64,000 nt of DNA from an uncultured Pseudomonadota bacterium. GTDB taxonomy: Bacteria; Desulfobacterota; Binatia; Binatales; Binataceae. The stretch's first letter is position 1, and each line of letters begins with the position of its first letter. The position numbers and the translations under genes were made by a program. This document shows, in pieces, positions 1,116 to 60,452 of this stretch. The notes below the pieces were generated by a model. That model was given only the letters and a program-made list of their open reading frames with translations, was not told where the DNA came from and searched no databases. Location: contig CAVWXK010000001.1 of NCBI GenBank assembly GCA_963759165.1, positions 3,058,164 through 3,122,163 on the forward strand, read 5' to 3'.

Positions 1116-1118
1116 ATC

Positions 1119-2030: not shown

Positions 2031-2034
2031 AGTC

Positions 2035-5664: not shown

Positions 5665-5673
5665 GGACAAGCA

Positions 5674-7990: not shown

Positions 7991-9777
7991 TAGGTGCGCT
8001 CCGCGATTGGTAGCTCTACGGTAAACTTGCTGCCCCGCTCGGAACTCTCGACGAAGATTCGCCCCCCGTGGGCTTCCACGATGTCCTTGACGATCGCCAG
8101 GCCTAGTCCGGCGGCGCCGGGCTCGTAGCCGTCGGCACTCCACTGCGAAAAGCGCGCGAAGATGTGGCCGCGAATCTCCGGTGCGATGCCGGGACCGGTA
8201 TCGGCAACTGTGAGCCTAAGCTGGCGCCCTTGCCGCTCGGCGAATACGTCGATCGAGCCTCCGCTCGGAGTATAGCGCAACGCGTTGCCGATCAGATTTG
8301 ATATCACCCAGGAAAGCTTGACCGGGTCGCCCCGTGCTTCAAGCCTTGGTTCATCAACATGGGTCGCGAGCCTCACCTGTTTCTGCTCAGCCTGGATGGC
8401 AAAGTTCCTGACCACCCCTACGACCAATTGGGCGAGGTCGAGCGGGGCGCTACTCACCCTGATGGAGGCCATCTCGCCGCGAGCAAGATTCAAAAGACCG
8501 TCGGCCAACTGGCGGATTCGTCCGGCCTCTTCGACGATGGCGGTGACCAGTTCCTGTTGTTTGGGATCGAGCGTGCTCCTGTTTCGCTGGAGCAGTTCCG
8601 CTGCCAGAGCGAGCGAGGTAAGCGGGGTCCTCAGCTCGTGGGAGAGGGTTGCGACCAGGTTTGCGCGGGCGCGGTCCTTGTCACGCAGGTAAGTGATGTC
8701 CTGCAGAATCAGTATGGTACCAAATGATTGCCCATCGCCCTGTCTGAGAGGGACTGGTTTTAGCAGATAGGTATGGTCACGCCCGCGCACGTGCAGGTCG
8801 ACTTCGATCTGCTGCCCGTTGCCGGGCGGCGTTGCGGCGCCGCGCAGGGCCGATCGCACACGAAGGTAATGAGGGTGATTACTGTTCAAATCGTCAAACG
8901 GGCTGCCAAGTGCGTCCTCTCTCTCGACCCCGAGGATGATTGAGGCAAGCTCGTTGATGTGTGCGACAATACCACTCGGATCGATCAATACGATCCCGTC
9001 TTCGAGGCTCTCGATGATCGCCTCGGTCTTGTTTTTCTCATAAATCAACCGGTCGACGTTGAGCTTGTCGAATTGCTCGAGCCGCTCGGCCATCTTGTTG
9101 AATTCCGAGGCTACCGCCTGAAGTTCGGCCAGCTTCTGCTCCCCCAGCCTTAACTGGGGCGTGCGAAGGCTGAAGCTTCGCAAGCGTTCCGCGAGTTCAG
9201 CGAGCGGCTTCGATATCGTCCAGGCGAGCGTCCAGGAAAGCGCCGCTCCAAACACCAGCAAAGCGGCAAGTCCGGCGGCGAACTCGTAGGTGAGCCTCGT
9301 TCCCATGCGGCTCGCGCGGCTGTCCGCGGCGAACATGGCGTCACGATTTATCTGGATGAGCTTGTCGAGGCGGGCATGCAGCACGGCGAATTCTTCGTCG
9401 TGACGCGCGGGCGCTCCGCCAGCTTCAATCTCGGCAAATAGGCGCCGCCCCCGTTCGTGAATCTCGCGCGCGAGTTCCGCCTCTCCGGCCTCGGTGATGT
9501 CGTGTTCCTCAACGTCGATCCAATGGAAAAATTCGTCACGGCTCGGGGAAAGGGCGGCGGAAAGCTTTCCGTCGCGCTCGCCGATCTGAAGGGCGCCGAG
9601 TGCGGCGTGCATATGCTGTGACGCTTCGATGCTTACGTAGTTACGGTACAGGGTTTCGCGAATCGCCCCGCTTAGACGGTAAACCTGCGGCAATGCCAGT
9701 ACGCCCAGCAGCATGGCGATCGCGAGCATTATAAGAGTGCCGTTGCGAATACGATTGCGGAGCGGCGGCGCGTTCAC
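7990..9777 (-). CDS. Membrane sensor histidine kinase (2 TM, periplasmic helical domain, HAMP, PAS, HisKA, HATPase_c)
   Basis: H-box LSHELRTPLTSL. N/G boxes NLIGNALRYT, DTGPGI, GLGLAIV. PAS segment IESLEDGIVLIDPSG. 4-nt overlap with the upstream USP gene. Confidence 0.9.
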   Translation of the reverse strand: MNAPPLRNRIRNGTLIMLAIAMLLGVLALPQVYRLSGAIRETLYRNYVSIEASQHMHAALGALQIGERDGKLSAALSPSRDEFFHWIDVEEHDITEAGEAELAREIHERGRRLFAEIEAGGAPARHDEEFAVLHARLDKLIQINRDAMFAADSRASRMGTRLTYEFAAGLAALLVFGAALSWTLAWTISKPLAELAERLRSFSLRTPQLRLGEQKLAELQAVASEFNKMAERLEQFDKLNVDRLIYEKNKTEAIIESLEDGIVLIDPSGIVAHINELASIILGVEREDALGSPFDDLNSNHPHYLRVRSALRGAATPPGNGQQIEVDLHVRGRDHTYLLKPVPLRQGDGQSFGTILILQDITYLRDKDRARANLVATLSHELRTPLTSLALAAELLQRNRSTLDPKQQELVTAIVEEAGRIRQLADGLLNLARGEMASIRVSSAPLDLAQLVVGVVRNFAIQAEQKQVRLATHVDEPRLEARGDPVKLSWVISNLIGNALRYTPSGGSIDVFAERQGRQLRLTVADTGPGIAPEIRGHIFARFSQWSADGYEPGAAGLGLAIVKDIVEAHGGRIFVESSERGSKFTVELPIAERT

Positions 9778-10247
9778 GGCTTCACTCCTTGGGCTTCATA
9801 GCCGACGAGCTCGATTTCAAAGTGACGCCCGCGGTTGATGAGCTGACGTGTGATGGAGCGCCGCAAGAGACGGCTTCCACCTCCGGGCCGGGTCCGGTGA
9901 AGGATGATCTTGCTAATCCGCTCGTCGCGGGCGAAGTCCGTCAAGGCCTGGGTTACATCCGGCGCTTTGAGCCAAACGACCTCGGCGCCCAAATCCGCGG
10001 CGAGGAAAAGGCTGTCGAGGAGGGCGTGAAACTTTTCGCTGGGGATGGCAGCGGTCGCCTCCCTGGGCGTTTCAACGTGGACCACAAAGAGTTCTCCTTC
10101 CTCTTCGCTCGTCGCGCGAACCACCTTGCGCAGCAGCGTCTCGGTGCCGGAGGCGTTTGCGGACAGGCAGAGCATGACACCTTTGCGCAGGCGGCGAGGT
10201 TGGGTTCGATTTCTGAACCGGAGGGCGCTGGTTGATCCGCTAGTCAT
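9774..10247 (-). CDS. Stand-alone KdpD-type universal stress protein (USP) domain protein
   Basis: 157 aa. VMLCLSANASGTETLLRKVVRAT...FVVHVETP...LAADLGAEVVWLKAPDV is clearly paralogous to the USP half of the preceding gene. ATG 10247 overlaps the upstream stop. Confidence 0.7.
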   Translation of the reverse strand: MTSGSTSALRFRNRTQPRRLRKGVMLCLSANASGTETLLRKVVRATSEEEGELFVVHVETPREATAAIPSEKFHALLDSLFLAADLGAEVVWLKAPDVTQALTDFARDERISKIILHRTRPGGGSRLLRRSITRQLINRGRHFEIELVGYEAQGVKP

Positions 10248-11395
10248 GATCCTGGCTGCCGAGGATTTCGACGTCGAAATCCTCGGCCTCGGAGATGAGG
10301 CGGTTGGTTATCGAGCGTCTCAGGATCAGGTTCCACAGACGCTTGTGTGTGCGGCCCACCACAATTCGGGTGATGTGCTTTTCGTGCGCGAAGTCGAGAA
10401 GCGGCTTCACGATGTCGGGGGACTTAAGCCAGACAACCTCGGCGCCCAGATCCGCCGCGAGGTTGATATTGTCGAGCAGGGCACGAAAATTACCGGTGCT
10501 GATCTTCTGGACCGACTCGGCTGGGGTCTCCACGTGCACCGCATACCAGTCGGCGTTTAGCTGGGCCGCGGTCCGCGAGGCCTTGCGCAAGAGCTGATCG
10601 CTGCCCTCCGGATTCGACGACAAACAGACCATGAGCCTCTCGGTTACGGCGGGCCTCCGTCCGCGCCCACGTTTGGCGAGCTCCAGGTCTTCGCGATGCC
10701 GGCTCTGGTCCCTGGCCACCTCGCGCAGAGCGAGCTCGCGCAGTGAGGCGAGATTGCTTGGCTTGAAGAAGTTCTTAAGCGCGTGCTCGACCTGCTCCGG
10801 GGGATAAATCTTTCCTTCACGCAGGCGTTCGCGAAGCTCCCCCACTGCGATGTCGACGGTCACCACCTGGTCGGCACGCGCCAGAAATCTATCCGGCAGC
10901 GTTTCTCTTACCTCGACCCCGGTTAACCGCTTGACCATCTGACTGAGGCTTTCCAGATGCTGGACGTTGAAAGCGGTGATGACGTTGATGCCGTTGGCAA
11001 CGAGTTCCTCGAACGTCCTGATAGCGCTTGGTGTGCCGGGAGCCCGGGGCGTTGGTGTGGGCTAACTCGTCGACCACGGCGATCTCGGGCTTACGCGCCA
11101 GCACGGCCTCAAGGTCCATCTCCTTGAGGACAACGCCGCGATAGGAGACTTCGCGCAAAGGGACGACTTCGAGGTCACCTAGCAAGGCTGCGGTATCGGC
11201 GCGCCCGTGAGTCTCGATTACGCCAATTACAACGTCATGTCCTTGAGCACGAAGCTGGTGCGCTTCCTGGAGCATGCGGTAGGTTTTCCCGACCCCCGCC
11301 GCTCCACCCACATAGATCTTGAGCCTGGCCTTCTGAGACCTCGGTACGAGGTCCAGAAAGGCTTCTGGCTCGCGGCGATCTTCCTCGTCACTCAT
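10240..11395 (-). CDS. kdpD: Soluble KdpD N-terminal sensor domain + USP domain protein (no kinase core); frame broken by one extra base near 11011
   Basis: P-loop GGAAGVGKTYRML and RHTKRYQDV. On the minus strand GAC GTT C GAG GAA: removing one base restores ...RYQDVEELVANGINVITAFNVQHLESLSQMV... and joins ORFs 10889..11395 and 10240..10938. A USP domain follows (RLMVCLSSNPEG...IVVGRT). Confidence 0.8.
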
Positions 11396-16797: not shown

Positions 16798-18360
16798 TCA
16801 CTTCAATTCCCAGATTCGGATTCTCGGCCCGGGCCGCTCCATGCTGGCGATGCTCCCGATCGGCGCGTAATAGGCGTCCTGAGCATCGACGATCGGCGCC
16901 CGAGCACCGCGCTTCACCGGATCGATGTCGAGAACGAGGGCCCCCTGTGAATTCAGCGCCGCAAGCTCCGCCTCTGACGGGCCGCGCGAATAGAACGATA
17001 TCGGCGCGAAGCTGTCCGACAGGACCCAGTGAATGCCCCTGACGTGTAATGTCGCGGGATCGCCGAATTCAACGAAGTTGTAAGCGGAGGTCACCTGTGG
17101 CTTGCCGCATAGATTGCCCCGGTCGGTCACCGCAATCACACTTCCCCTAGGAATATGTTCCTCAATCCATTGCCTCGCCAACGTTCGACTATCCGGCCGC
17201 AAGAGCAGGCGGTCGAGCTCAACATCGCGGATCAGCGACGGCAGCAGGAGAAGGCCAAGCCCGAGGCCGACCACGGCGGTGGCGATTTTTTTGCCCAGAC
17301 GAGCGGAGAGCATCGAGCCGGCCTGAGCCGCCGCGATGCCGCCGAGAATCGCCATCGCCGGCAACGGAACAATCAGGTAGCGATAGAATACGTAGCGGCT
17401 GCCGGTCATGCCGAGGAACGCGACGCCGACGAACGCAAGCAAGGAAAGCGTCCCGGGCTTGGGCCGGATAAGCGCCCACAGCATCGACGCGAGCAAAAAG
17501 AGCTGCAGGCCGATGCCGAAACTATCCGGCATAGCTCGCAGCAGAAGCCACGACCATCCGTGGCCGGCCTGCGGGTTCGGCAGTCCGTCGAGCACGAAGC
17601 CTCTTTGATAAACGAAATCGTTCACGGTCTGCTGCCAATCGAGAATGAAATAGGGCGTCGCGCAAACGAAGGCGACCACGGTTACGTAGCCGGCCAAATA
17701 GATCCGCAGATCGCGGTAGGAGCGCAGCAAGGATCGGCCCTCGCGACGGCGGGCGCCGAGATGAGCCGCCGCGATGCCGAACGCTATCGCGCCGGCCGGG
17801 TACTTGGTGGCGGTCGCCAGTCCGGCGAAGAAACCGGCGCCGGCGTAATCGCGGTAACAGCCACGATGCACGATTCGCAGAATCATCGCGATCGCCATCG
17901 TGAGCCAGAACCCCATCGCCGCGTCGGTGGTGGCATACTTCGCCTCGCGCATATGGAGCGTTGAGACGGCGAGAATCGCCGCGGCGCTCAGCGCGGCCTC
18001 CGTTCCGAACGCGGGCGCCGCGGCGAAATAGATCGCCGGCACGGTAGCCGTCGCGAAAGCAGCCGAGACGCGGCGCACGATCAGACAGGCGCGACTTCCG
18101 TCGTCGCCGCCGAAAGCCGCGCCAAACTCCTCGCCCGCAACCGCCGCGTATATCCGAAGCGCGGCGTGGTTTACGTACATTTGTGCAGCCGGGTAGATGG
18201 CGAAGTTCGGATTCCAGTCCTGCTGGAAGCCGAGCGCGCGCGACATCATATATTCTTCATCCGGCCTATATCTGTCCGGGAGGCCGAAACTGGTCGCGGT
18301 GAACCGCAACCATCCCGCCATCAGGGTCAGCAGCGCGAGGATAACGAAACGCGCCTTCAC
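16798..18360 (-). CDS. Polytopic GT-C glycosyltransferase, family 39/ArnT-PMT-like
   Basis: Preferred start is GTG at 18360, overlapping the upstream stop as GTGA (MKARFVILALLTLMAGWLRF...); the track's TTG 18411 is an alternative. First-loop acidic motif RYRPDEEYMMSRAL. More than 10 TM helices, then a soluble C-terminal domain. Confidence 0.65.
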   Translation of the reverse strand: MKARFVILALLTLMAGWLRFTATSFGLPDRYRPDEEYMMSRALGFQQDWNPNFAIYPAAQMYVNHAALRIYAAVAGEEFGAAFGGDDGSRACLIVRRVSAAFATATVPAIYFAAAPAFGTEAALSAAAILAVSTLHMREAKYATTDAAMGFWLTMAIAMILRIVHRGCYRDYAGAGFFAGLATATKYPAGAIAFGIAAAHLGARRREGRSLLRSYRDLRIYLAGYVTVVAFVCATPYFILDWQQTVNDFVYQRGFVLDGLPNPQAGHGWSWLLLRAMPDSFGIGLQLFLLASMLWALIRPKPGTLSLLAFVGVAFLGMTGSRYVFYRYLIVPLPAMAILGGIAAAQAGSMLSARLGKKIATAVVGLGLGLLLLPSLIRDVELDRLLLRPDSRTLARQWIEEHIPRGSVIAVTDRGNLCGKPQVTSAYNFVEFGDPATLHVRGIHWVLSDSFAPISFYSRGPSEAELAALNSQGALVLDIDPVKRGARAPIVDAQDAYYAPIGSIASMERPGPRIRIWELK

Positions 18361-19058
18361 GGCGGGATTCTCGATGACGGCGGTAGTAGATAGCGCCAGA
18401 GCAGCAGGCAAATCCCAACCGCGAGCAGCGCCTCCACCAATGCCCGGATTCGCGAACGGTCGGCGTCGGAAGCCGCCGCCTTCTCAGCCGTCGCGCCGCC
18501 TTCGGCTAAGTTTGCCTCCACCTCCTCGAAAGATATTCCGCTAAAGTATGCGGTGCCCGTGTTCAGAGCGCCGTAGCCGCCCAGACGGCACGCAAGCTCA
18601 ACGGAGGTTTCTCCGGGATCGGTCTTCACGCGAAATCCCACCCGCTGCCAATCATGTGTTCCGCGAATGTCGCCGGAGATGTAGGGCCGGTCCATTACTG
18701 TGATGTGAGCGCCGAGCCCACCTCCTACACCGACATTTTCGGTCCTGATCCATCCCGAGACCCAATATGATTTCGAGGGAGTCACGCGCACGGTCTGAAC
18801 CCATCGCGCGTCGTTCGGTTTGAGGCTCGATATGATGATCGTTCCGATCCCGGTCGCGCCTGCGATCCAGGTGAATCGCGTCGCCGACGGGTCGGAATCG
18901 AAAGCCACATGGCTCCAGCCCTCGGGCTGGCCGCCGATGCCGCGCGAAAACAGGCCGTTGCGAACCAGATCGGATGCCGCCGCCGGCGACGACCAGGCCA
19001 GCACGATTACAAAAACGAGGCTGAGAAGCCGGTCACAGGTTCGATAGCGAATGATCAT
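18357..19058 (-). CDS. Secreted/anchored CBM-like (CBM4/9-type beta-sandwich) protein with a C-terminal TM anchor
   Basis: Signal peptide ...SSPAAASD. NGLFSRGIGGQPEGW start typical of CBM_4_9-like modules. C-terminal helix LVEALLAVGICLLLW. About 85% identical to the N-terminus of the 710-aa protein. Confidence 0.6.
   Translation of the reverse strand: MIIRYRTCDRLLSLVFVIVLAWSSPAAASDLVRNGLFSRGIGGQPEGWSHVAFDSDPSATRFTWIAGATGIGTIIISSLKPNDARWVQTVRVTPSKSYWVSGWIRTENVGVGGGLGAHITVMDRPYISGDIRGTHDWQRVGFRVKTDPGETSVELACRLGGYGALNTGTAYFSGISFEEVEANLAEGGATAEKAAASDADRSRIRALVEALLAVGICLLLWRYLLPPSSRIPP
18545..18985 (-). repeat. Copy A of a duplicated CBM-module coding segment
   Basis: Colinear with 22445..22885 at a constant 3900-nt offset without indels. 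Roughly 85% nucleotide identity by eye. Confidence 0.85.
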
Positions 19059-20807
19059 TTACGGAGCCAGTACGGAGCCAGGAAATTTCGCGAAAGGCTT
19101 CTCTTTGCGCACCAACCAGAGCATCACGATCAGGGCTACCACACCTATCGCGGCACCTACGACAACATCGCGGTCCCGGTAAGCCAGCTTAATCTCTTGT
19201 TTACCCGGCGGCAGTCGGACGCTCAACAGGCCGTCGTTCGAAAACACTTGCCCCTTGCCCTCGACCAGCCTCCAGCTTGGATAGTAATTTTGATTTATTA
19301 TCAAGATTGCATCAGTAGGCACTGCGACTTCATATAAAAGGGCATTCGGAGTCCAGCGAAGAAGCCGCACTGTACCCCGGCCCGTCAGATATTGCTCGCC
19401 TCGATACCCAGGCTGATTCTCACCCACTACGTTAGTCGGAACTGACATTGCCTGGTAGCAGGTAGGATCACCACGATTGCTTTTTGCCAGGTTGTACATA
19501 CCTGTAGCCGAGTAGCCAGTGGCGAATTGTCGGAAACCGCCGTCAACGGTTGGCGGATCGTCGATCTCGGTTACATACGCGAGATTCGGGACGCCGACCA
19601 ACCAGCTGTCAGCTACGGCGGCTGCAATCAGGGCCGCGCCCAGCACTTTACCCCCTTTGCCCAGCTGGCGATCCAGAAAGTCCGCTCCGTACGCGGCCAT
19701 CACGCCTAGCGTGAAGACGAACGGAACAATGAAACGCGGCGTCGCGCGCTCCGAAGAAAACGGCGGCAGTCGATGCAACAATTGCCACAAGTACGGATAC
19801 CCGCCTTCTCCCGCGGCCAAAGTGATGAAGACCATGGCTGCGCCGATCCACGGAGCGAGCCGTCTGGGCGACCCCACTATGCCGACGCAAACGAGCGCGG
19901 CGGCGAAGGGGCTCACATACGCTCCGTACTCGTAAAACGCGTAGCCACCGATGCTGCTCCTATCCATAAGCTGGTTGCGGGAGAAAAGAGCCGAATGAAG
20001 TGACCGCACCGAAAAATTCGCGAACGGAATATCGGTCGGGCGAGAATATATTGAGAGCAACCTGGCTGCCGGCAGCAACTTGACCGCGCCAAGCGCGGCG
20101 CCAAAGATGCCGATCGTCACCAGAACAACGATCGGCCAGGTGCTTCTGCGCTGGGCAGCGTACAGCACGCACAGCAGCGTAACCAGCAGCGCGGCGTGAG
20201 TCGTCGGATACACGCCGCCTTCGCCAAACATCAGAGCCGTGACCATCCCTCCCATGGCGGCCCACGATAGTGCCCCTGTTTGAATCGCGAGCAGGCTGAA
20301 CAACGCCACCCAGGGAAGGTAGAGCCACGGTATGGCCCACGCATGTCCAACAGCTATATGCAGAAACAACGAGGAACTGGTTGGAAACACGCAAGCACAG
20401 GTAACGCGACCGACGAAACCGAGACCTTGTGCGCGCGCCAACAGGTACCCGCCGATAAAGCCAATCGTTAGATGGAGGGGGATTTCCAGGTGAAGTCCCA
20501 GCGTCGGCCCAAACGCCAGATGAAGCAGGAAGAAAGGAGTCATAATACGGACTTGAGGATCGGCAAACAAAGGCATACCGCCGCACAGGTATGGATTCCA
20601 AAGCGGCAATTGATGAAAATGCGTGACCGATCGGAACGGAACCCAGTGAAACAGCAGGAATTGGTCCCAGTCCCAGACCCGACCGATCCGGAAGGGATGG
20701 GCAATCACTGGATAGCTGAATATCAATCCAAGGGCCACAAAGCCAAGCGCGACGAACAGATACTCAGTTCTGAGTCTAAGGCGCAGGTTCGTATAGCAGT
20801 GGAGCAC
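19059..20807 (-). CDS. YfhO-like polytopic membrane protein (putative GT-C glycosyltransferase)
   Basis: 582 aa. HQLPLWNPYLCGGMPLFADPQ motif resembles the YfhO family. About 12 TM plus a C-terminal periplasmic domain and a terminal TM. GTG start 3 nt after the upstream stop. Confidence 0.55.
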   Translation of the reverse strand: MLHCYTNLRLRLRTEYLFVALGFVALGLIFSYPVIAHPFRIGRVWDWDQFLLFHWVPFRSVTHFHQLPLWNPYLCGGMPLFADPQVRIMTPFFLLHLAFGPTLGLHLEIPLHLTIGFIGGYLLARAQGLGFVGRVTCACVFPTSSSLFLHIAVGHAWAIPWLYLPWVALFSLLAIQTGALSWAAMGGMVTALMFGEGGVYPTTHAALLVTLLCVLYAAQRRSTWPIVVLVTIGIFGAALGAVKLLPAARLLSIYSRPTDIPFANFSVRSLHSALFSRNQLMDRSSIGGYAFYEYGAYVSPFAAALVCVGIVGSPRRLAPWIGAAMVFITLAAGEGGYPYLWQLLHRLPPFSSERATPRFIVPFVFTLGVMAAYGADFLDRQLGKGGKVLGAALIAAAVADSWLVGVPNLAYVTEIDDPPTVDGGFRQFATGYSATGMYNLAKSNRGDPTCYQAMSVPTNVVGENQPGYRGEQYLTGRGTVRLLRWTPNALLYEVAVPTDAILIINQNYYPSWRLVEGKGQVFSNDGLLSVRLPPGKQEIKLAYRDRDVVVGAAIGVVALIVMLWLVRKEKPFAKFPGSVLAP

Positions 20808-20810
20808 GGC

Positions 20811-22943
20811 CTATCCGAAGCCGAACATGCGAACGTGCCAGACGCCGAAAGTAACCATGACGATCGAAGCTACAATCAGGATCCTGCTCATCTGATCGAC
20901 GCGGCGTCTGACGCCGAGCGCCATCAGGACTAGCAGAAAAGGAAAGATTTCGAGGTAATACCGCGACCCCAGTTGGACGAATCCATTGGCGTAACAAAGC
21001 AGCGGGGCTCCGCTCGCAAGGATTGCCGCCAACCCGACCAGAATCGGAATCGGCCGGCGAAAATTCGCGCGCAGCGCCAGCAGCAGCGCCGGGCTGGTCA
21101 GAATCAGAGATTGGCCGGTCATGCTCGGATGTATGTACGGAAAGCGATCGTTGAAGTTCGGCGCCATGAACAGCACCGTATAAAGGTTCTCCGGCAGATA
21201 CCGCAGGGAAAACGGACCGGCCGGATGCGAGAAGCGATGGGGATCGGTCGGATAATAGATCCAGAGCGAGATATCGGAGACGGTTCCGTATCGGACCTCG
21301 TTGAATACAATGTAAACAACAGCGGCCAGCACAAAGCCCGGCGCCATCCAGAGGAGCTGCCGCCATCGCCTGCCGCGCGCCCAAAGCATCAGCGCGTAGA
21401 TCGGCCAGGCCAGCATCAGGTCGTATCGGGTCAGACCGGCGAGGGCGGCGAGGATTCCGACCATCGCGGGCCGCGCCTTTCCGAAAAGTTCGTTGAGAGT
21501 AAGCAGCGTCATCGCGACCGAGGCGACCAGTATGAAGTCCCAGCTGTTCCCCACGGTTGACTCGTACCAAAGCGTCGTTCCCGCTCCGAAGAAAATCGTC
21601 AGCCATACTCTCGAAGTAATGGTGAGGCCCAGAAGCCCGAGCAGCCGCCATGCCAGCGCGATTTCAAAAGCGCCGAGCAGCAGGCACACGATCGTTTGAT
21701 TGGTCGAGAGGCCCCAGATCGCGACCAGCGGCGTCAGCAGGATCGCCGAAAACGGCGGATGGACCAGATAAGTGCGTCCCTGCCACCGCACGTGTTCCAT
21801 AAACCCCGGCACCGAGACCCACGCGCGTCCATGCACAAACGCGTTTGCCTGTAGCGTCGGTTCATTGAACGGGGTCGCATCGCTGGAGCCTGTGACCGCG
21901 TAAAAGGCGAGGAAGGCCACAAATATCGCGAAGAAGCTCCAACTTTGGGCAGAAGGCAGAGGCAGGCGGACCGAAGCTTTGCTTTCGGCTCTTCGGCGGC
22001 TCAAAGGCAGCAGTCCCAGCCCGACTATCGCGGCGAACAGTGCCGCCATAGCCACCTCGTTCGGCGACCTGCCGCTCCTGACCAGGTATGCCGCATCGGC
22101 AGCCACGACGGCCACCGCCGATGTAAAAAACCCGCGAGCGACAGTCCAATCACCGAGGGAGCGCGCGGCGCGGCTTCGGATGGAAGGAGCGGCCTTCGCC
22201 GCTTCGCGCGCACGCATCCGAGCTGCTTCCTCACCCGGTTCGCGATGGCCGCCGAGATCGGCACTCGCAACCGCACCCTGTTCGGTCCCGGTCGCTCCGG
22301 ACCAGAAACAGAGCAGCAGGGCAAGCGCGGGTACGATCAGCGCCGCCATCAACGACCCGATTCGCCAGTCGTTGGCGTCGGCATCGCTGACTACCGGGCC
22401 GCTCACCGGAAAGGTTTCGACCTCCTCGAAAGATATCCCGGTAAAATACGCGGTGCCCGTGTTCAGAGCGCTGTAGCCACCCAGCCGGCAGGCAAGCTCC
22501 AGGGTCGTCTCTCCCGGCCCGGCCTTCGCCCAAAACCCCACCCGCTGCCAATCGTGTGTGCCGCGAATGTCGCCGGAGATGTAGGGCCGGTCCATTATCG
22601 TGATGTAACCGCCAAGCCCCCCTCCTTCTCCGACATTCTCAGTACGGATCCATCCCGAAACCCAATATGATTTTGAGGGAGTTACGGGCACGGTCTGAAT
22701 CCATCGCGCATCATTCGGTTGCAGGCTCGATATGCCGATTGTTCCGATCCCGGCGGCGCCTGCCGTCCAGGTGAATCGCGTAGCGGATGGGTCGGAATTG
22801 AAGGCCTCGTGCCTCCAGCCCTCGGGCTGGCCGCCGACACCGCGCGAAAACAGACCATTGCGAACCAGATCGGATGCCGCCGGCGCGGGCGAGGGCCAGA
22901 CCAGCACGATTACAATAACGATGCCGAGAAGGCGCCTAATCAT
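20811..22943 (-). CDS. CBM-like module + TM anchor + linker fused to a polytopic GT-C-like (ArnT/PMT-like) membrane domain
   Basis: 710 aa. Signal peptide, CBM-like domain (LVRNGLFSRGVGGQPEGW...LACRLGGYSALNTGTAYF), TM, then more than 10 TM with loop FNEPTLQANAFVHGRAW...GRTYLVHPPFSAILLTP. Confidence 0.6.
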   Translation of the reverse strand: MIRRLLGIVIVIVLVWPSPAPAASDLVRNGLFSRGVGGQPEGWRHEAFNSDPSATRFTWTAGAAGIGTIGISSLQPNDARWIQTVPVTPSKSYWVSGWIRTENVGEGGGLGGYITIMDRPYISGDIRGTHDWQRVGFWAKAGPGETTLELACRLGGYSALNTGTAYFTGISFEEVETFPVSGPVVSDADANDWRIGSLMAALIVPALALLLCFWSGATGTEQGAVASADLGGHREPGEEAARMRAREAAKAAPSIRSRAARSLGDWTVARGFFTSAVAVVAADAAYLVRSGRSPNEVAMAALFAAIVGLGLLPLSRRRAESKASVRLPLPSAQSWSFFAIFVAFLAFYAVTGSSDATPFNEPTLQANAFVHGRAWVSVPGFMEHVRWQGRTYLVHPPFSAILLTPLVAIWGLSTNQTIVCLLLGAFEIALAWRLLGLLGLTITSRVWLTIFFGAGTTLWYESTVGNSWDFILVASVAMTLLTLNELFGKARPAMVGILAALAGLTRYDLMLAWPIYALMLWARGRRWRQLLWMAPGFVLAAVVYIVFNEVRYGTVSDISLWIYYPTDPHRFSHPAGPFSLRYLPENLYTVLFMAPNFNDRFPYIHPSMTGQSLILTSPALLLALRANFRRPIPILVGLAAILASGAPLLCYANGFVQLGSRYYLEIFPFLLVLMALGVRRRVDQMSRILIVASIVMVTFGVWHVRMFGFG
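22445..22885 (-). repeat. Copy B of a duplicated CBM-module coding segment
   Basis: See copy A, e.g. cggtgcccgtgttcagagcg, ccgcgaatgtcgccggagatgtagggccggtccatta, cgaaccagatcggatgccgc shared verbatim. Confidence 0.85.
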
Positions 22944-23192
22944 TCGAGTTTTTTTCTTATGACCTGGGTTTCATCCGGCGCCGGCTGACGGTTGGGTCGC
23001 ATAATACGAACGCCGGGTCAAAAGGACAACGATGTTTCAGCATAGCGCGCTTTTGCGAATGGGCGCATGCTCGTGATAGAAAGCGCTCCGGGCCTGCCCG
23101 TGATTGTTCGATGGTTTACCAATCCCCGCTCCCGGCGTGAAAATTTCCGGTCACGCACGAGGCCTCCGCTTTCCGACGAGAGTCCTGCCTTA

Positions 23193-25937
23193 ATGCTCTT
23201 TCTCCGAATCGCGGTCCCATCCAAAGTCCTGATTCTGATCTTCGCGGGAATGTTGCTGTCAGTCCTTTTCGCCTCACCGAGCGCGAGCGCCGAGGACAAC
23301 ATCCTGTTGAACGGTGACGTGAGCAAGGGCGCGGGCGAATCGCCCGATCACTGGCGCGGCGACGGCTGGAAAGAAGGCCCCGAGTTCACGACCTTTCGAT
23401 GGAAACACGCCCAAGGGAAGCCCGGCGAGCTCGAGATTTCGAACCTCAAGCCCAACGATGCGCGCTGGGTCCAGACCCTCCATCTCGGCCCAGGATGGTA
23501 CCGCTTCTCGGCCGACATTCGCACCGAAAACGTAGCCGAAGATCATACCGGCGCCGCGCTCAGCGTCCTTGAAGATGGAATCATCTCACGGGACCTTCAC
23601 GGCACCAACGACTGGCAGACGGTGGAATTCTACCTCAAGATCGGCGAGAAGGGCGCCGACATCCCGCTCGCCTGCCGGCTCGGCGGCTACGCCGGCCTCA
23701 ACACCGGCAAAGCGTCTTGCCGCGACTTGAGAGGCGCAAGGATCGCGGAGCCTCCCGCGGATGCCAGGTACAAATACGACCTCGATGTGATTCGGGGAGG
23801 CGGGCCGCCGCCACCAGCCGCTTCGGATAACTCAACGCAAGTCACGGTTTTGGCACTGCTTGCGATGGTGCTGCTTGCGGTGTTGGTCGGGTGGCGAAGG
23901 TTCGGCAACAAGGCGCTGCGCCGGCTGCGCCTCGTGATGCGGATGGAGCCGCAACCAGAGAGCGCGCCGCCCATTCCCGCGGACCCCGCGCGGCGAAGGA
24001 TCGAAATCGCGCTGTTTCTGGTATCGTTTCTGACCTTCGCCTACTTCTATCAGGCCTCGGATCACAGCACCGCATCCCGTTTCGATCTGATTCGCTCGAT
24101 TATCGAGCGCCATACCCTGTGGATCGAAGGCTACGCCGGCTACAACACCGCCGACATCGTCGAATTGAATTCGCACATCTATTCCAACAAGGCGCCCGGC
24201 GGAGCGTTCACGGGGCTCTTACCCTGGACCGTAATTACAACGATTCTGCGTTTTCTATTTTCCACGCCGAACGGACCGTACTGGGCCCTTGCGACCCATC
24301 TGACCACGATTTTTTCGGTAAGCGTGATAGTCGCCGGGTTGACCGTTCTAATGTATCGCTTCGCGCTCGTTCTGGGCGCCGGGAGCGGACGCGCGGTCGC
24401 GATGGCGCTCGCCCTGGCCTTCGCGACGATCATGTTTCCGTACGCCACCGAATTGACCGGCGAGCCGATCGCGGCCTTTTGCGTTTTCGCGGCTTTCTAC
24501 ATCCTTGCCCGGCCCGTCGACGGAACCGGATTGTGGGAAAGTTTGTTGGCGGGTCTGCTCGCCGGCTGGTCGGTCCTGTGCGATTACCCTACGTCCATTC
24601 TGGCGGTTATTGTGGGGCTGTATGCGCTGTGGAAGCTGCGCGACTGGCGCAAGAGCGCGGCCTTCGCGCTCGGCGCGATGGCGATCGCGGTTGTGATGCT
24701 CGCATACAACAAATTCGCATTCGGCAATCCGCTGTTCCTGAGCTACGAAGCTTACATGCTGCCCGGCAGCAAACAGTTTCCGGAGCAATCGGTCGGGTTC
24801 GCCGGCGTCACTTATCCCCGCTTGCCCATCCTTTGGAACGTGCTGCTTGGCACGCAACGCGGATTGTTTTTTTGCAATCCGGTTCTGCTGCTGGCGATTC
24901 CCGGACTTGCGTTCTTCTGGTGGCGTCGCTCTTTTCGCCCGGAGTTTGTGGTGGTCGTCGTTTCCATCGTCAGCTTTGTGCTGTTCAATGCCTCGTACGG
25001 GCAATCGATTATCTACTGGGGCGGAGGGACGGCGACTGGTCCGCGCCACATGGTCTCGGCGCTGCCGTTCATGATTCTCGCGATGGCGTTTTTGCCCCGC
25101 AAACTGAACTATATCTTCGGGGCCCTGGCGATCCTGTCGGCGTTTCTGATGTTGATGACGACCGCGGTAGAGCCGCACCTTCCCTATGAGTATCAGAACC
25201 CGCTGTGCGACTTCGTCTGGCCGGCCTATTTGCGCGGCGACCTGGCATACAACAAGAGCACCTATTTCGGCGGCGGCCCGATAGCCGGCGATTCGGTGGC
25301 CTTCAATCTCGGCAAGTTGGCGGGGCTTCCCGGCGCACTTCGACTGATACCACTTGCGGCGATATGGCTTGCCGCCGCGGTGGCTCTTCTGCGCGATTCA
25401 GACTTGTGGCAAACCCCGAGACGACGGAAGGCGGCGGCCGCAACCGCACTGGCGATCGTGGCGCTGTTTGCGCCGCCAATAGTGGGCGCATCGCTCCACC
25501 AACCCGGACATGACGAGCCTCACGGATTGCTGGGACGATATTACGAGGGCTTGCGACCCAACCGCTTTCCGCCTCATATCCTGCGCGTGGACAAGGAGAT
25601 CGCCTTCGACAATATCGCCGAGCTCGGAGCCTTGCCGTCGCCCTCGTTCGTTCGATGGACCGGCAAGCTCACCGCGCCGACCACCGGCCTCTACCATTTC
25701 AAGATAACCGTCGACGATGCGGGATGGCTGAACATAGACGGCCATCACGTAATCGAAGATCCCGGAGAAGTCAGCAAGCCTCAGGACACGGGCAGCATCC
25801 AGCTTGCCGCGGGCGCACATTCGATCGAGATCGGCCAGCGTAACATTTGGGGCGACGCTTCGATGCACTTCCTGTGGCAGCCACCCGGCGGCATCGAGGA
25901 GGTTGTCCCGTCGCGGTTCCTGATTCCCGGAAGCTAG
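23193..25937 (+). CDS. CBM-like module + polytopic GT-C-like membrane domain + C-terminal PA14 domain
   Basis: Probable start MLFLRIAVPSKVLILIF... (signal peptide ...SPSASAED); the ORF is open from 23067. Diverged third CBM copy (LKPNDARWVQT, IRTENV, GTNDWQ, LACRLGGYAGLNTG). More than 12 TM with loop FDLIRSIIERHTLWIEGY...IYSNKAPGG. PA14: GLLGRYYEG...VRWTGKLTAPTTGLYHFKITVDDAGWLNIDGHHV...LWQPPG. Confidence 0.7.
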   Translation: MLFLRIAVPSKVLILIFAGMLLSVLFASPSASAEDNILLNGDVSKGAGESPDHWRGDGWKEGPEFTTFRWKHAQGKPGELEISNLKPNDARWVQTLHLGPGWYRFSADIRTENVAEDHTGAALSVLEDGIISRDLHGTNDWQTVEFYLKIGEKGADIPLACRLGGYAGLNTGKASCRDLRGARIAEPPADARYKYDLDVIRGGGPPPPAASDNSTQVTVLALLAMVLLAVLVGWRRFGNKALRRLRLVMRMEPQPESAPPIPADPARRRIEIALFLVSFLTFAYFYQASDHSTASRFDLIRSIIERHTLWIEGYAGYNTADIVELNSHIYSNKAPGGAFTGLLPWTVITTILRFLFSTPNGPYWALATHLTTIFSVSVIVAGLTVLMYRFALVLGAGSGRAVAMALALAFATIMFPYATELTGEPIAAFCVFAAFYILARPVDGTGLWESLLAGLLAGWSVLCDYPTSILAVIVGLYALWKLRDWRKSAAFALGAMAIAVVMLAYNKFAFGNPLFLSYEAYMLPGSKQFPEQSVGFAGVTYPRLPILWNVLLGTQRGLFFCNPVLLLAIPGLAFFWWRRSFRPEFVVVVVSIVSFVLFNASYGQSIIYWGGGTATGPRHMVSALPFMILAMAFLPRKLNYIFGALAILSAFLMLMTTAVEPHLPYEYQNPLCDFVWPAYLRGDLAYNKSTYFGGGPIAGDSVAFNLGKLAGLPGALRLIPLAAIWLAAAVALLRDSDLWQTPRRRKAAAATALAIVALFAPPIVGASLHQPGHDEPHGLLGRYYEGLRPNRFPPHILRVDKEIAFDNIAELGALPSPSFVRWTGKLTAPTTGLYHFKITVDDAGWLNIDGHHVIEDPGEVSKPQDTGSIQLAAGAHSIEIGQRNIWGDASMHFLWQPPGGIEEVVPSRFLIPGS

Positions 25938-28742: not shown

Positions 28743-31700
28743 GTGAGCGTGGTCGACACGAATCAGCCATCGGCGCCCGGGCGTAACGGCACGTCGCGGG
28801 ATACTTTCGCCGACCGCGTCTACGCAACCGCCAAAGGATTGGGCTCTGAAGCTCCCGATGCGGCGCGGATGGTGCGGATATTCATATCAATCCTGCTGGC
28901 GCCTCAGATCTTTTTCTTAGGCACCACCGGCGCCTTTCCGGAGCAACTGGGTTCGTTGCTGCCGGCCCGTATCGTCGCCGTCGGCGTGATGGCGGTTCTC
29001 TTCGGCCTCACCTTCAACCGGAGGTTTGCGCGTCACTGGCAGGATGCGACGCTGATATTTTGCGGCCTCGTGATTGTCGCGGCCACTGTCGACGGACTGC
29101 GAAGCCCCCCCACCATTTTTAATTTCCTGCGGCTGATAATGTTCTCGGTTATCTCCGCGGCGTTGCTCCCCTGGTCCGCGCGGCGCCAGACCGTGCTCAA
29201 CCTTTTTTGTCTGATTTCTTTTGCGTTTCTCGCCGGGCATCAAATGCCCCTCGACCCGTTTCGCGCTTGGACCTCGTTCCTCGGCGCGCTTGTGGTTTCC
29301 GAGATTCTCGCCGTCTACCTGTCCGGCCATCGCCGGAAACTGGCCGCGCAGCTTAAGGCGCTGATCGAAAGCGAAGATCGCTTCAGACGCATTTTCAACT
29401 CCACCACCGATTCGATTGCTCTCATTTCGATACGGGATTTGACGTACCTCGACGTTAACCAGGAACTGCTGCGAGCGAGCGGGTTTGTGCGGGAGGAAAT
29501 TGTCGGCAGGAAAATCCCGGAGGTTGGCATCCTGGCCAACCCCGGTGAGTTCGCGCGGCTCCACGCGGAGTTCCTGCAATCGGGGAAACTGCTCAACCGC
29601 GAAGTTGACACCAGGACTAAAGACGGCAGGGTATTTTCGGGCCTGATATCGGTGACTCCCATTGAAATCGAGGGCCGGGAGTGCGCGCTGGCGATGGTGC
29701 GCAACATCACCGATGAGAAACGCCTCCGGGAAATGTTTGTCGGGGTTTTGGAATCCGCGCCGGACGCGATGATTGTGACCGATCCGGAAGGCAAGATCGT
29801 TCTGGCCAACGCCCGGGTCAAGAACCTGTTCGGCTACGCTGAGGCTGAGCTGATCGGCCGCAGCGTCGAGATTTTGATGCCCGAGCGTTTTCGCGGCAAC
29901 CATTCGCGGTATCTCTCCGGTTATGTCCAAGCCCCTCGCGTGCGGCCGATGGGCGCCGGCGTCGAGATCTTTGGCCTCCGAAAAGACGGAAGCGAATTCC
30001 CGGCCGAGATCAGCCTGAGCCCCGTGAGGACCGCGCAAGGATTGCTTATCGCCAGCAGCATCCGCGACATCACCGCACGCAAGCAGGTGGAGATGGCGAC
30101 TCGGCAACTGGCGGCGATCGTCGAATCTTCCGAAGACGCCATCGCCAGCGCGACGCTCGACGGCACCATCACCAGTTGGAACCCCGGGGCCGAGAACCTC
30201 TTCGGCTATTCGGCGGCCGAAATCGTCGGTCGATCTTCCAGGCTCTTTGTTGGGCCCGATGCCTGGCCCGGATTTCAGCGAATGTTGGAGACCATCGGCC
30301 GGCAGGGGGGCATCCACAGGTACGAGGCGCGACGGCGGAAAAAAGACGGTGCGCCGGTCGATATCTCCGTAACCCTCTCTCCGATTTACGACGACGCCGG
30401 CGTCGTGGTGGGCGCTTCGGCAATCGGCAGGGACATCACCGCGCGCAAGCGCACCGAACTGGAACAGCAGCAGAGTGAAGAAAAGTTCAGGAAGATATTC
30501 GATGCGAGCACCGACGTAATTTCGATAAATTCTTTGGCCGATGGAAGATACATCGACGTCAACGGCGAATTCGAAACCTTTACCGGTTATGCCCGCGAGG
30601 AAACGATCGGCAGGACTCCGCGAGAACTAAAACTTTGGCCCAACGATGACGACCTGAAAACATTGATGCGGGAACTCCGCACCGGGGGGTTCGTTCGCAA
30701 CCTCGAATCCGATTTCCTCACCAAGTCCGGCGAGCGGCGCTCCCGCCTGCTTTCCGCGGTGCTAATCGACTTTGCGGGTGAGCGCTGCATCCTCTCGTTT
30801 TCCCGCGACATCACCGAGCGCAAGCGCGCCGAGGAGACGCGCGCGCTGCTGGCGACGATCGTGGAGTCCGCCGACGAGGCAATCTTCAGCGCCGATTCCG
30901 AGCTCAGGATCACGAGCTGGAATCCGGGCGCGGAAAAACTCTATGGATATGCTCCATCCGAGATCATTGGGCGATCGGTCGGGGTCACGGTTCCTCCCGA
31001 TGCTTTCGACCAATTTGAGCGGGCGCGCTCCAGCCTGAGGCGAGGGCGAGGCGTCCAACGGTACGAGGCCAAGCGGCTGAGGAAGGACGGCACCCTGTTT
31101 GACGCCTACGTAATGGTGTCTCCGATTTATGACGCAAACGGCGCTTTCGCCGGCACCTCGGCGATCATCAGCGACATCAGCGAACGCAAACGCGCCGAGG
31201 AGACAGTTCAGCGCCTGGCGGCGATCGTCGCATCCTCCGACGACGCCATGGGAAGCGCCACTCTCGACGGTATCGTAACCGCCTGGAATCCCGCCGCGGC
31301 CCGGTTGTACGGATATTCAACGGCTGAAGTGGTCGGCAAGCCCCTCGGAACCTTTCTCAGCCCGGAGGAGCTGCCAGAGGCCCAGAACGCCGTCGCGTGG
31401 GTCGCGCAGGGTAAGGGCGTCTACAGGTACGAGAGCCGGCGCGGGAGAAAGGACGGAACGCGGGTCAATATCTCCGTAATAGTGTCGCCGATCCGCGATG
31501 CTGCAGGCACTATAGTCGGCGCCTCGGCGATCGCTCGCGACATCACCGAGCGCAAGCGCGCCGAGGAGAGCCGCGCGCTGCTGGCGTCGATCGTGGAGTC
31601 CGCCGACGACGCAATCGTCAGCGCGGACCTGGACCGGAAGATAACCAGCTCGGAATCCGGGCGCGGAAAAACTCTACGGATATTCCGCGGCGGAAATCAT

Positions 31701-33353
31701 CGGCCAGCCGCTCGAGATTCTGCTTCCGTCCGACCGTCCGGATGAGATTAAGAACAGACGCGCAATGATGCGGCGCGGCGAAGGGCTGCAAAAATACGAG
31801 ACCAAACGGCGCCGCAAGGACGGCACCATCATCGACGTAAGCATGACCGTCTCCTTCATTTACGATGCGGCAGGGGCGGTCGTCGGGGGGTCATCGATTA
31901 CTCACGACATCACCGAGCGCAAGCGCGCCGAGGAGACGCGGGCGCTCCTCGCGGCCGTCGTGCAGTCCGCCGACGACGCGATCGTCAGTGGTAACCTCGA
32001 CTGGAGCATCACCAGCTGGAATCCGGGCGCGGAAAAACTCTACGGGTATTCCGCAGCGGAGGTTATAGGGCGATCGCTCGATCTCCTGGTCCCTTCCGCT
32101 CGTTCGGAGGAAACCCGGCAACTGCGCGCCAGATTAGTGCGGGGTGAAAGCGTTCAGCAGTTTGAAACCAGGCGCGTGAAGAAGGATGGCACCCTGTTCG
32201 ACGCCTCGATTACCGTCTCTCCCGTTTACGATGCGAACGGCGCCGTGGTGGGAGTTTCGGCGTTCACCAAGGATATCACCGAGCGCAAGCGTGCCGAGGA
32301 GAGCCGTGCGCTGTTGGCAACAATCGTGCAATTCGCCGACGACGCGATCGTCAGCACGGACTTGACCGGGAAAATAATGACCTGGAATCCGGGCGCGGAG
32401 AAACTCTACGGCTATCGTGCCGACGAAATCGTGGGGCAAACGATCGGGCTTCTGGTCCCCCCGGACCGTTCGAACGAGATCAGCCGGTTTCGCGCCAGGA
32501 TAATCCATGGAGAAGGAGTCCAACGGTACGAAACCAGTCGAGTGAAAAAGGACGGCGCTTTGGTCGATATATCCGCAAGCCTGTCCCCCATCTACGATGC
32601 GGGCGGCGCGATCGTCGGCACCGCCTCGATCACCCGCGACATCACCGAGCGCAGACTTGCCGAACGCGCCAAAGAACTGGCCCGCTCGAACGCGGAGTCG
32701 AGGACTTCGCCTACGTAGTGTCGCACGATCTGCGCCAGCCGCTCCACAACGTCACCGCCTACGTGCGCCTCCTGACCAGGGAATACCAGGGCAAGTTGAG
32801 CGCGGACGCGGATGAGTATATCCGCTACGCTCTCGACGGCGTGACGTGGATGCAGAAGCTGATCGACGACGTGCTCATCTATGCGCGGGCGACCACGGAC
32901 AAAAAAGCGCTCGAGCCGACCGATTTCGCTTCGGTTGTGAGCCAGGCGATCGACAATCTCTCAGTCGCTATCGAGAATCAAAAGGCTACCGTCACCTATG
33001 AGCCCATGCCTACCGTTGCGGCTGACGGTCGCGCGATGACGCAGGTGTTTCAGAACCTGATTGACAACGCGCTCAAGTTCCGCGGCGAGGAGCCGCCCAG
33101 CGTGCATCTGGGCGCGAAACGCGGAGCGGGAGAGTGGGTTTTCTCGGTGCGCGATAACGGGATTGGGATCGCTCCCGAGCACACCCGTGATCTCTTCATG
33201 ATGTTCCATCGTCTGCACAACCGCCGCGAGTATCCGGGGAGCGGAATCGGACTGGCGGTTTGCAGGAAGATCGTCGAGCAGCACGGCGGCCGGATTTGGG
33301 TCGAGTCCGAGCCCGGCCGCGGCACGACCTTCTATTTCACCATCCCGGCGTGA
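28743..33353 (+). CDS. Giant membrane sensor histidine kinase with nine PAS domains; interrupted as sequenced by +1 (31652) and -1 (32697/32698) frame errors
   Basis: ORFs 28743..31745, 31765..32718 and 32718..33353 join into one 1536-aa protein. Deleting C31652 turns ACC AGC T-C-GG AAT into TSWNP, as in the sister repeats. Adding a C in GAG-TCGAG gives AELEDFAYVVSHDLRQPL (H-box). The N-terminal TM domain and the kinase core are paralogous to kinase 1. Confidence 0.85.
30069..32643 (+). repeat. In-frame tandem array of PAS-domain units (366-nt period) inside the giant kinase
   Basis: The junction codons ATC-(ACC/AGC)-(GAG/GAA/GCG)-CGC (D-I-T/S-E/A-R-K) recur at 30069, 30435, 30810, 31176, 31542, 31909, 32275 and 32641. 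Spacings are 366, 375, 366, 366, 367, 366, 366; the 367 contains the extra base. Recurrent signature ITSWNPGAEKLYGY. Confidence 0.9.
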
Positions 33354-60367: not shown

Positions 60368-60452
60368 GGCGCTTGCGATGCTACGTTCCAAGATGCGCAC
60401 GAGACACGGACGGCGCAACCGGAACACAAGCACCGTAGCGCAATTGGCGGAG

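Follow-up and report, generated by a model that had tools for sequence, protein, structure and literature searches.

A CBM-like module shared among predicted GT-C glycosyltransferases in a gene cluster of an uncultured Binataceae bacterium

Most envelope glycans of bacteria are assembled or modified by GT-C enzymes, yet little is understood of how these enzymes locate their acceptors. The question arises for a cluster of five genes, here called A to E, at positions 16798-25937 of a 64,000-nucleotide (nt) stretch from an uncultured, soil-type Binataceae genome (assembly GCA_963759165.1, contig CAVWXK010000001.1). We refer to this whole stretch as the window. The open reading frame (ORF) map places A-B-C-D on the minus strand and E divergently on the plus strand. 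A, C, and E begin with copies of the same module, and all proteins except C carry a polytopic membrane domain. What would such an assembly of proteins do, and why would one module accompany several of them? An original prediction, made from the sequence alone, had proposed lectin-guided glycosylation of an envelope glycan or glycoprotein. Our analysis leads to a reading of this kind: the cluster is probably a periplasmic glycosylation line that uses lipid-linked sugars, with lectin modules that hold a common glycan or glycoprotein acceptor.

The shared module and the four membrane domains

The modules of A, C, and E align over ~170 residues and are paralogous, as had been proposed. A and C are 73-76% identical at the protein level, and A and E are 37% identical over 183 amino acids (aa; E = 3e-32). 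The motifs IRTENV, GT(H/N)DWQ, and LACRLGGY..LNTG are found in all three modules; a further motif that had been given as common to them with the beginning LKP reads LQPNDARWIQT in A. The AlphaFold2 (AF2) model of C, built with 47 homologs, has a predicted local distance difference test score (pLDDT) of 87 and comprises a signal/anchor helix, a beta-sandwich (core pLDDT 96-98), and a C-terminal transmembrane (TM) helix. When this model was compared with the PDB using Foldseek, the best match was the CBM70 structure 4d0q (E = 4.2e-11), followed by CBM4-2, CBM16, CBM61, and CBM22, all carbohydrate-binding modules (CBMs). In addition, an hmmsearch of PDB sequences with the module family profile found 4d0q at E = 5e-9 over ~153 positions. 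We are confident that the module is, as modeled, a CBM70/CBM4-type beta-jelly roll, homologous to these CBMs in sequence as well as in fold, in agreement with the earlier CBM-like call. Pfam CBM_4_9 matches in module relatives stay below threshold (20-23 bits vs 25.9), so the module family is effectively unannotated. Although the module shares its fold with CBM4 and with CBM70 of the Streptococcus pneumoniae hyaluronate lyase, identity is 20-24%, CBM70 is attached to a lyase while the module is attached to biosynthetic membrane enzymes, and NDARW.Q and ACRLGGY are specific to the module family.

Mutagenesis of CBM70 identified W82, R112, H116, K143, R145, and K185 as hyaluronan-binding residues (PMC4175358). 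We placed these residues on the module through the HMMER alignment of the family profile to 4d0q. W82 corresponds to the aromatic residue of the module's EAW/F, and K185 to R158 of ACRLGGY; both are kept. Two further residues, R112 and H116, fall on the NDARW.Q strand, at D83 and V87, respectively; N82, D83, and Q88 of this strand never vary. R145 aligns with A117 of the module's conserved GA. The aligned groove residues coincide with the most conserved positions of the module. Since they map onto the signature motifs, these motifs would line the sugar-binding groove known from CBM70 and CBM4, with another chemistry. N82, D83, Q88, and R158 are invariant or nearly so from Binatia to Firmicutes, whichever GT-C partner is present, and this conservation of the predicted groove across all partners suggests one ligand class.

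The same conservation bears on a different reading, in which the module is not an acceptor lectin and instead binds the donor head group or the released carrier, serves as an assembly or regulatory subunit, or is the glycosylated substrate. Near-invariant residues would fit a universal ligand better than variable acceptors, and the replacement of the basic CBM70 residues points the same way. We nevertheless consider this reading quite improbable. All close structural relatives of the module are glycan-binding CBMs, the CBM binds the acceptor in the GT-C enzymes Emb, AftD, and GT136 (PMC11127046), and the module also occurs in soluble secreted proteins without a GT-C domain, e.g., together with an M60 peptidase domain. 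The variant in which the module is the glycosylated substrate was rejected, as the linkers are not Ser/Thr-rich.

Among the membrane domains, that of E gives the clearest picture. The AF2 model of E has a pLDDT of 85, and Foldseek matches its membrane part to GT-C enzymes exclusively (EmbC 7bve, 2.9e-10; EmbA/B; STT3 8pn9; ArnT 5f15, TMt 0.46; Pmt4 9i5k, TMt 0.47), its N terminus to CBM70, and its C terminus to sugar-binding PA14 domains (RsgI 6qdi/6qe7, root-mean-square deviation 2.4-3.7; MpAFP; Epa/Flo). In Pfam, E matches PA14 (PF07691) with 49 bits (cut-off 24) and, weakly, PMT_2 with 19.9 bits. In NCBIfam it matches LA3751_2_3, the LA_3751/LA_3752 putative glycosyltransferase, with 49 bits. 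A single-sequence PDB search matched the PA14 part only (RsgI3 PA14, 2.1e-10). In the loop that follows TM1, D290, R296, D298, and D321 are invariant in 51 homologs. In the model, E adopts a GT-C fold and ends in a PA14 domain; the CBM, GT-C-like, and PA14 parts originally assigned to this protein are all recovered by AF2/Foldseek, and PA14 also by Pfam.

A has no Pfam match, and NCBIfam relates it to the LA_3751/LA_3752 putative glycosyltransferase with 32.7 bits. The profiles of the A and E families align in hhalign with a probability of 99.1% (E = 1e-18, 356 columns), and A and E therefore form one uncharacterized GT-C family; the proposed CBM-TM-GT-C fusion in A is thereby supported in both its module and its membrane domain. 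This family is large. Full-length A, including its module, matched 3196 representative proteins at E <= 0.001, some of them via the module, and among the matches listed those to the membrane domain are mostly stand-alone proteins of ~380-430 aa. Only 3 of 50 A-type homologs touch PMT_2 or GT87 in Pfam. LA_3751/LA_3752 putative glycosyltransferase is the sole name that this large unannotated family has had so far, and a literature search returned no paper on LA_3751 and nothing relevant on Binatia glycosyltransferases.

D passes the thresholds of both PMT_2 (42.7 bits, cut-off 26.1) and PMT (28.3 bits, cut-off 22.7) in Pfam, as expected for the GT39/ArnT-like protein that it had been taken for. 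Its first periplasmic loop contains a PDEEY motif, of which PDEE, with the D34-E35 pair, is invariant, and it ends in a soluble C-terminal domain of 143 aa. The marks of a canonical GT39 protein O-mannosyltransferase are absent from D, which has no PMT_4TMC match in Pfam and no PMT match in NCBIfam. When the D and E families were compared using hhalign, only 80 columns aligned, at 77%.

Judged by its profile matches, B is the weakest family assignment among the cluster proteins and is YfhO-like at the family level only. B lies below the PF09586 (YfhO) threshold and 19 of its 34 homologs match this model at E <= 0.01 (best 6.4e-7); we therefore speak of a YfhO-like family, not of a member. The earlier YfhO-like label thus holds for the homologs and fails for B itself, whose own matches are faint (AftD GT-C, 13.6 bits; PgfM1 C terminus, 12 bits). 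The layout of B, with a 141-aa predicted periplasmic domain ahead of the final TM helix, fits YfhO. In this C-terminal domain, the B-family profile (aa ~452-479) gives weak matches to beta/gamma-crystallin Greek keys (E 0.02-0.05) near NQPGYRGEQYL.G.G, which may reflect a small crystallin-like fold or chance. At least one further B-type paralog (P0078), 53% identical to B, is encoded at another locus of the same genome.

It could be argued that these polytopic domains are not sugar transferases and act as polymerases, ligases, or transporters or are inactive relatives. Neither A nor B has an above-threshold match to curated families, and the family profiles of A, B, and D found nothing relevant among PDB sequences, where the single sequence of D found nothing useful either. 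We regard this explanation as highly improbable, given that the membrane part of E matches GT-C enzymes only, that D passes two Pfam GT-C models, that acidic residues in the first periplasmic loop of the E family are invariant, and that the association with DedA and GT2 genes described below fits a lipid-linked donor.

Fused and split relatives in other genomes

The module is present in 62 GTDB species genomes. Among the GTDB genome loci (L001-L068), the long N-terminal extensions of the L008, L010, and L017 ORFs were discounted as open-frame artefacts. In metagenome-assembled genomes of Binatia, Binataceae, and 'Deltaproteobacteria', most copies of the module are anchored proteins of 230-275 aa. 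In Cohnella, Paenibacillus, and Clostridia, the module forms the N terminus of proteins of 1250-1350 aa with GT87-like and PMT+PMT_4TMC domains. Fusions of the module to GT87-like + PMT double enzymes are found in both Binatia and Firmicutes. BLASTP gave no match between the membrane domain of A and the GT-C parts of the 1130-aa Binatia fusion. We also observed ~600-aa proteins of Bacillota and Chloroflexi in which a signal peptide is followed by two tandem modules and no polytopic domain (L030:10001-10984, L032:10001-10951, L043:579-1562), so the module works outside GT-C enzymes as well.

Two layouts recur among the relatives. In about ten Binatia-type assemblies, a gene for a module+GT87-like+PMT protein (~1130-1180 aa) is followed by a C-like gene and by a D-like gene whose product is 49-56% identical to D. 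Altogether, C-D pairs occur in 13 other assemblies. In the Binatia assembly GCA_036563615, the product of the gene after the C-like gene is 54% identical to D, and 12 more assemblies have a D-type gene after a C-like gene. In the second layout, seen in most of ten Binataceae-type loci with an E-type gene, a 966-aa PMT+PMT_4TMC protein is encoded ahead of a 275-aa module protein, which in turn overlaps by 4 nt with the gene for a 657-aa GT-C+PA14 protein. The module protein and the 657-aa protein of this layout are a split form of E, and the protein database holds E forms that are long and module-bearing (~910-980 aa) as well as short ones. The best explanation for C is that it would act in trans as a lectin subunit of D, because the two are translationally coupled, because their pairing is conserved, and because E exists in split and fused states. 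The module is also found at the N terminus of B-type enzymes (P0075, P0094, P0126, P0141) and fused to A-type domains elsewhere (L133). As a separate observation, five Binatia-type loci carry a divergent gene for a VKOR-DsbA/thioredoxin fusion just upstream of the module+GT87-like+PMT gene (L001:5282-6535; L008, L010, L013, L014), and a link between disulfide formation and this glycosylation locus is possible.

Metagenomes were scanned with the A-type domain, and the resulting 80 loci (L070-L149) were analyzed with in-house hidden Markov models. A B-type gene is present in 21 of them, usually directly adjoining the A-type gene. Two independent metagenome contigs (L070, L071) show E divergent from A-C-D, i.e., the cluster without B and with an A that lacks the module. 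A DedA/VTT gene (PF09335, 61-66 bits) is found in 19 of the 80 loci; in 12 of the 80, it lies no more than 250 nt from the A-type gene, with examples beside A-type genes or after A-B pairs at L122:3398-4030, L101:9195-9872, and L091:3849-4478. DedA proteins are undecaprenyl-phosphate (C55-P) flippases, and some flip phospholipid instead (PMC12893004, PMC11474028). This neighborhood suggests that DedA could be a dedicated carrier-lipid recycling partner of the A/E family. At one GTDB locus (L006), an A-type gene (hhalign 98.8%) abuts a gene for a 263-aa GT2 whose best matches are AglJ, PpgS, dolichol-phosphate-hexose synthase, PgfS, and ArnC; dTDP-sugar genes follow the GT2 gene, and a stand-alone module gene faces this operon in convergent orientation. 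The DedA and L006 GT2 associations are what would be expected if the GT-C proteins use a lipid-linked donor. The candidate role of a GT2 donor synthase as a conserved neighbor was rejected: apart from L006, it is found in 1 of the 80 A-type metagenome loci, and none is conserved in C-D or E-type loci.

These relatives also allow us to weigh the view that the cluster is not one pathway but a pile-up of GT-C paralogs that are independent of one another and serve different targets, and in which duplication spreads the shared module as a generic lectin or scaffold near the membrane. In most other genomes, C-D, A-B, and E lie at separate loci, and no A- or B-type gene is found within 10 kb of C-D or E in L001-L068. 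Moreover, the modules of A and C are 86% identical in DNA over 300 nt (18517-18816 vs 22417-22716), far above the remainder of both genes, which points to recent duplication or gene conversion. A module+A fusion found elsewhere (P0314) shows a protein identity of only 49%. Considered together with the likeness of the A and C modules in DNA, it suggests that the two copies were homogenized by gene conversion and not brought about by a very recent fusion. The pile-up is, however, difficult to reconcile with the translational coupling of the four minus-strand genes, with the recurrence of E divergent from A-C-D on two contigs, and with groove residues that are kept across partners as if for one ligand class. 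We therefore consider it unlikely.

Donor, acceptor, and comparison with known systems

How could the glycosylation line favored here work? Topology was derived from hydropathy and the positive-inside rule. Each module is preceded by a signal-peptide-like segment and followed by one TM helix and a K/R-rich linker, as the original prediction described. In A and E, the predicted order starts with a signal peptide and the module, which lies outside. A single TM helix then leads into the K/R-rich linker in the cytoplasm, and TM1 of the GT-C domain crosses back to the outside, where the acidic loop 1 lies. The cytoplasmic RRRK loop of E precedes its last TM helix, so PA14 would lie outside too. From this pattern we infer that the modules, the first GT-C loop, and PA14 are in the periplasm, where the original prediction had also put the modules and PA14.

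In the proposed mechanism, the cluster would supply four GT-C-type transferases, with A and E from one family, B YfhO-like, and D PMT_2-like. Each of them would take its sugar from a polyprenyl-phosphate-linked donor that is made by a cytoplasmic GT2, flipped by proteins encoded at unlinked genes, and used at the periplasmic face of the inner membrane. Through its own TM helix, the CBM70/CBM4-like lectin module would stay near the active site. A and E carry it as a fusion, C would provide it in trans for D, and E would have PA14 as a second sugar-binding domain. By binding the glycan part of a shared acceptor or growing product, the modules would raise the local acceptor concentration. The acceptor itself would be either a glycan of the envelope or a glycoprotein that is secreted or belongs to the envelope. 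The PMT kinship of D, the true PMT-type neighbors in relatives, and the GT39 precedent of Caldicellulosiruptor bescii speak for a glycoprotein; a polysaccharide or glycolipid is favored by the folds of the CBM and of PA14, by the kinship to YfhO, and by the dTDP-sugar genes at L006.

A narrower version of this mechanism takes the cluster to be a PMT-type protein O-glycosylation system, in which D, together with C, would initiate O-linked chains at Ser/Thr residues of secreted proteins, with polyprenyl-phosphate-mannose or a different hexose as the source. Chain extension would fall to A, B, and E, and the modules would have the role that MIR domains play in eukaryotic PMTs. D matches PMT and PMT_2 and has the DE motif in loop 1. 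Other Binatia and Binataceae module genes adjoin or are fused with PMT + PMT_4TMC enzymes that score 69-83 bits as NCBIfam protein O-mannosyltransferases, and deletion of Cbes_1864 in C. bescii abolishes glycosylation of secreted cellulases (PMC6151902). On the other hand, D itself lacks PMT_4TMC, the NCBIfam scores of the relatives are far under the 800-bit cut-off, and L006 ties the A type to dTDP-sugar genes typical of polysaccharide loci. CBM4/CBM70-type modules, PA14, and YfhO are, furthermore, better known with polysaccharide or teichoic-acid ligands (PMC5836110). We view this version as possible, with the odds against it.

Several observations weigh against the broader reading that we prefer, i.e., a line of lipid-linked-sugar transferases with acceptor-holding modules. 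The ligand type of CBM70 is not transferable to the module, given that R112 and R145 are replaced. A is assigned to GT-C through the profile homology of its family to that of E, and the A-family alignment has no acidic position with >=90% conservation. B has no YfhO match at E <= 0.1 in the Pfam scan, fails every family threshold, and as a family shows no similarity to the D and E families in hhalign. In the window, Pfam scans of 55 ORFs (50 flanking and 5 cluster ORFs) identified no GT2, GtrA, DedA, Wzx/Wzy, or export genes, and no candidate acceptor gene is evident near the cluster. The rarity of GT2 genes beside A-type genes counts in the same direction. The original prediction had already reported that GT2, flippase, and export genes are missing, and tblastn of the window with a GT2 query and a DedA query, which gave no match, agrees. 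The weight that it placed on the missing GT2 was too great in one respect, as the absence is the norm for the family. A three-component system has a polyprenyl-phosphate-sugar synthase of family GT2 and a GtrA-type flippase beside its GT-C enzyme, and the 64 kb contain neither; such a scheme may still operate with unlinked genes.

The combination of a GT-C enzyme with an extracytoplasmic CBM is already known from Emb, AftD, GT136, and the GT39 enzyme of C. bescii. The mycobacterial arabinofuranosyltransferases EmbA/EmbB/EmbC and AftD are likewise polytopic GT-C proteins with extracytoplasmic beta-sandwich CBMs, which bind the acceptor polysaccharide there (PMC3044687, PMC11127046). Emb is the best Foldseek match of the E model, yet sequence similarity is not detectable and the whole-chain TM-score is ~0.3. 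The CBMs of Emb and AftD, moreover, sit in loops or at the C terminus, whereas the module described here is N-terminal, has its own signal peptide and an extra TM helix, and is sometimes a separate gene. GT136 ORF12 of Citrobacter youngae is a GT-C enzyme whose attached CBM binds the unmodified glycan and whose donor, a polyprenyl-phosphate-sugar, comes from a GT2 (PMC11127046). In EmbC, AftD, and GT136, binding of the acceptor glycan by the CBM raises the local acceptor concentration (PMC11127046). L006 resembles GT136 and the three-component systems in pairing an A-type GT-C with an abutting GT2. GT136 differs in that its CBM is of another family and at the opposite protein end and in that it has one GT-C, as opposed to four clustered ones with no GT2 or flippase in the window.

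The closest architecture by description is that of Cbes_1864, the GT39 enzyme of C. bescii, which has a signal peptide, an N-terminal CBM-like domain, and a GT-C domain of ~390 aa and is genetically required for glycosylation of secreted proteins (PMC6151902). It matches A, and C and D jointly, by description only, and it is a single enzyme of a Gram-positive thermophile. Finally, the B family shares a large extracytoplasmic domain before the last TM helix with YfhO, which acts with CsbB in teichoic-acid glycosylation in Bacillus subtilis and Listeria, and with PgfM1/PgfM2 (PMC5836110). In contrast to the YfhO/CsbB systems, the host of the cluster is presumably a diderm without teichoic acids, and B has no adjacent CsbB-type GT2 or GtrA.

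Lectin-guided glycosylation remains the best reading of the cluster and is strengthened by the fused and split forms elsewhere; what the original prediction overstated is the design, as CBM-bearing GT-C enzymes are established (PMC11127046, PMC3044687, PMC6151902). Since the principle is known, the gain is incremental, not conceptual. New are the module family, a distant relative of CBM70 whose aligned groove residues are its own, the N-terminal, separately anchored placement together with a stand-alone module subunit, the exchange of the module among at least five GT-C types, and the unannotated A/E GT-C family with its DedA link. One module that is fused, split, or duplicated beside several unrelated GT-C families amounts to a natural experiment and makes an acceptor-recruiting role directly testable. 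The cluster also provides a first handle on the envelope glycobiology of uncultured Binatia. A more far-reaching proposal, which we put forward tentatively and consider doubtful as a whole, is that the NDARW module could be a portable membrane-tethered lectin subunit, fused or in trans, that has been swapped among at least five GT-C families in Binatia, Firmicutes, and other phyla for one conserved envelope ligand, and that with the new A/E family it would build an undescribed surface glycan or glycoprotein modification in Binatia.

Gene layout and surroundings of the cluster

The ORFs, their sizes, and all junctions of the cluster were reproduced, in line with the originally described, tightly abutted minus-strand operon and divergent 914-aa gene (Table 1). 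A and B are separated by a 3-nt gap (TAG-GCC-GTG), the TAA of B directly abuts the ATG of C, and C and D overlap by 4 nt (GTGA). A promoter and terminator scan gave nothing above chance, with a single sigma-70-like match on the minus strand (23029-23001) in the A/E intergenic region. The identical five products, with identical ends, are on record together on one 3.27-Mb contig of a public assembly, and full-length homologs of matching length exist elsewhere for all five genes.

Table 1. Genes and predicted domains of the cluster (nt positions are those of the window)
Feature	Position (nt)	Strand	Size or residues	Description
A	20811-22943	-	710 aa	Fusion: signal peptide, module, TM, linker, GT-C-like domain
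A module	22410-22874		aa 24-178	Followed by TM helix aa 195-213
A GT-C-like domain	20814-21953		aa 331-710 (~380 aa)	Compact; preceded by long basic cytoplasmic linker
B	19059-20807	-	582 aa	GTG start; polytopic, divergent YfhO-like family
C	18357-19058	-	233 aa	Stand-alone module protein with TM anchor
C module	18513-18971		aa 30-182	TM anchor aa 204-226; short PPSSRIPP tail
D	16798-18360	-	520 aa	PMT_2/PMT-type GT-C (GT39/ArnT-like); start is a GTG overlapping the C stop
A/E intergenic region	22944-23192		249 nt	Divergent; presumed site of both promoters
E	23193-25937	+	914 aa	Fusion: signal peptide, module, TM, linker, GT-C, PA14; start is the second ATG of the open frame
E module	23292-23762		aa 34-190	Followed by TM helix aa 215-233
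E GT-C domain	23982-25496		aa 264-768
E PA14 domain	25515-25934		aa 775-914	C-terminal, predicted periplasmic

The flank at lower coordinates encodes a group-4-hydrogenase/Mrp-like complex, two-component regulators, and kdpDCBA, and the flank at higher coordinates encodes PAS histidine kinases and housekeeping genes. Several of the flanking genes appear split. kdpD is found as two ORFs (10889-11395 and 10240-10938), and dnaJ is divided into a J domain (59873-60526) and a C-terminal part (59274-59903). A PAS histidine kinase is in three pieces, and the M41 domain of ftsH is maybe truncated (the split-gene regions are 9774-11395, 28743-33353, 55811-57740, and 59274-60526). This looks like long-read indel errors or pseudogenization; because several housekeeping genes are split, indel errors in the assembly are possible. 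We further note an operon at 78-6471 that encodes Mrp/NuoL-like antiporter subunits, a NuoH-like protein, a fused 30-kDa/49-kDa large subunit, and a NuoB-like protein with an extra 2x[4Fe-4S] domain, and whose predicted products resemble a group-4 membrane-bound hydrogenase or formate-hydrogenlyase-type complex.

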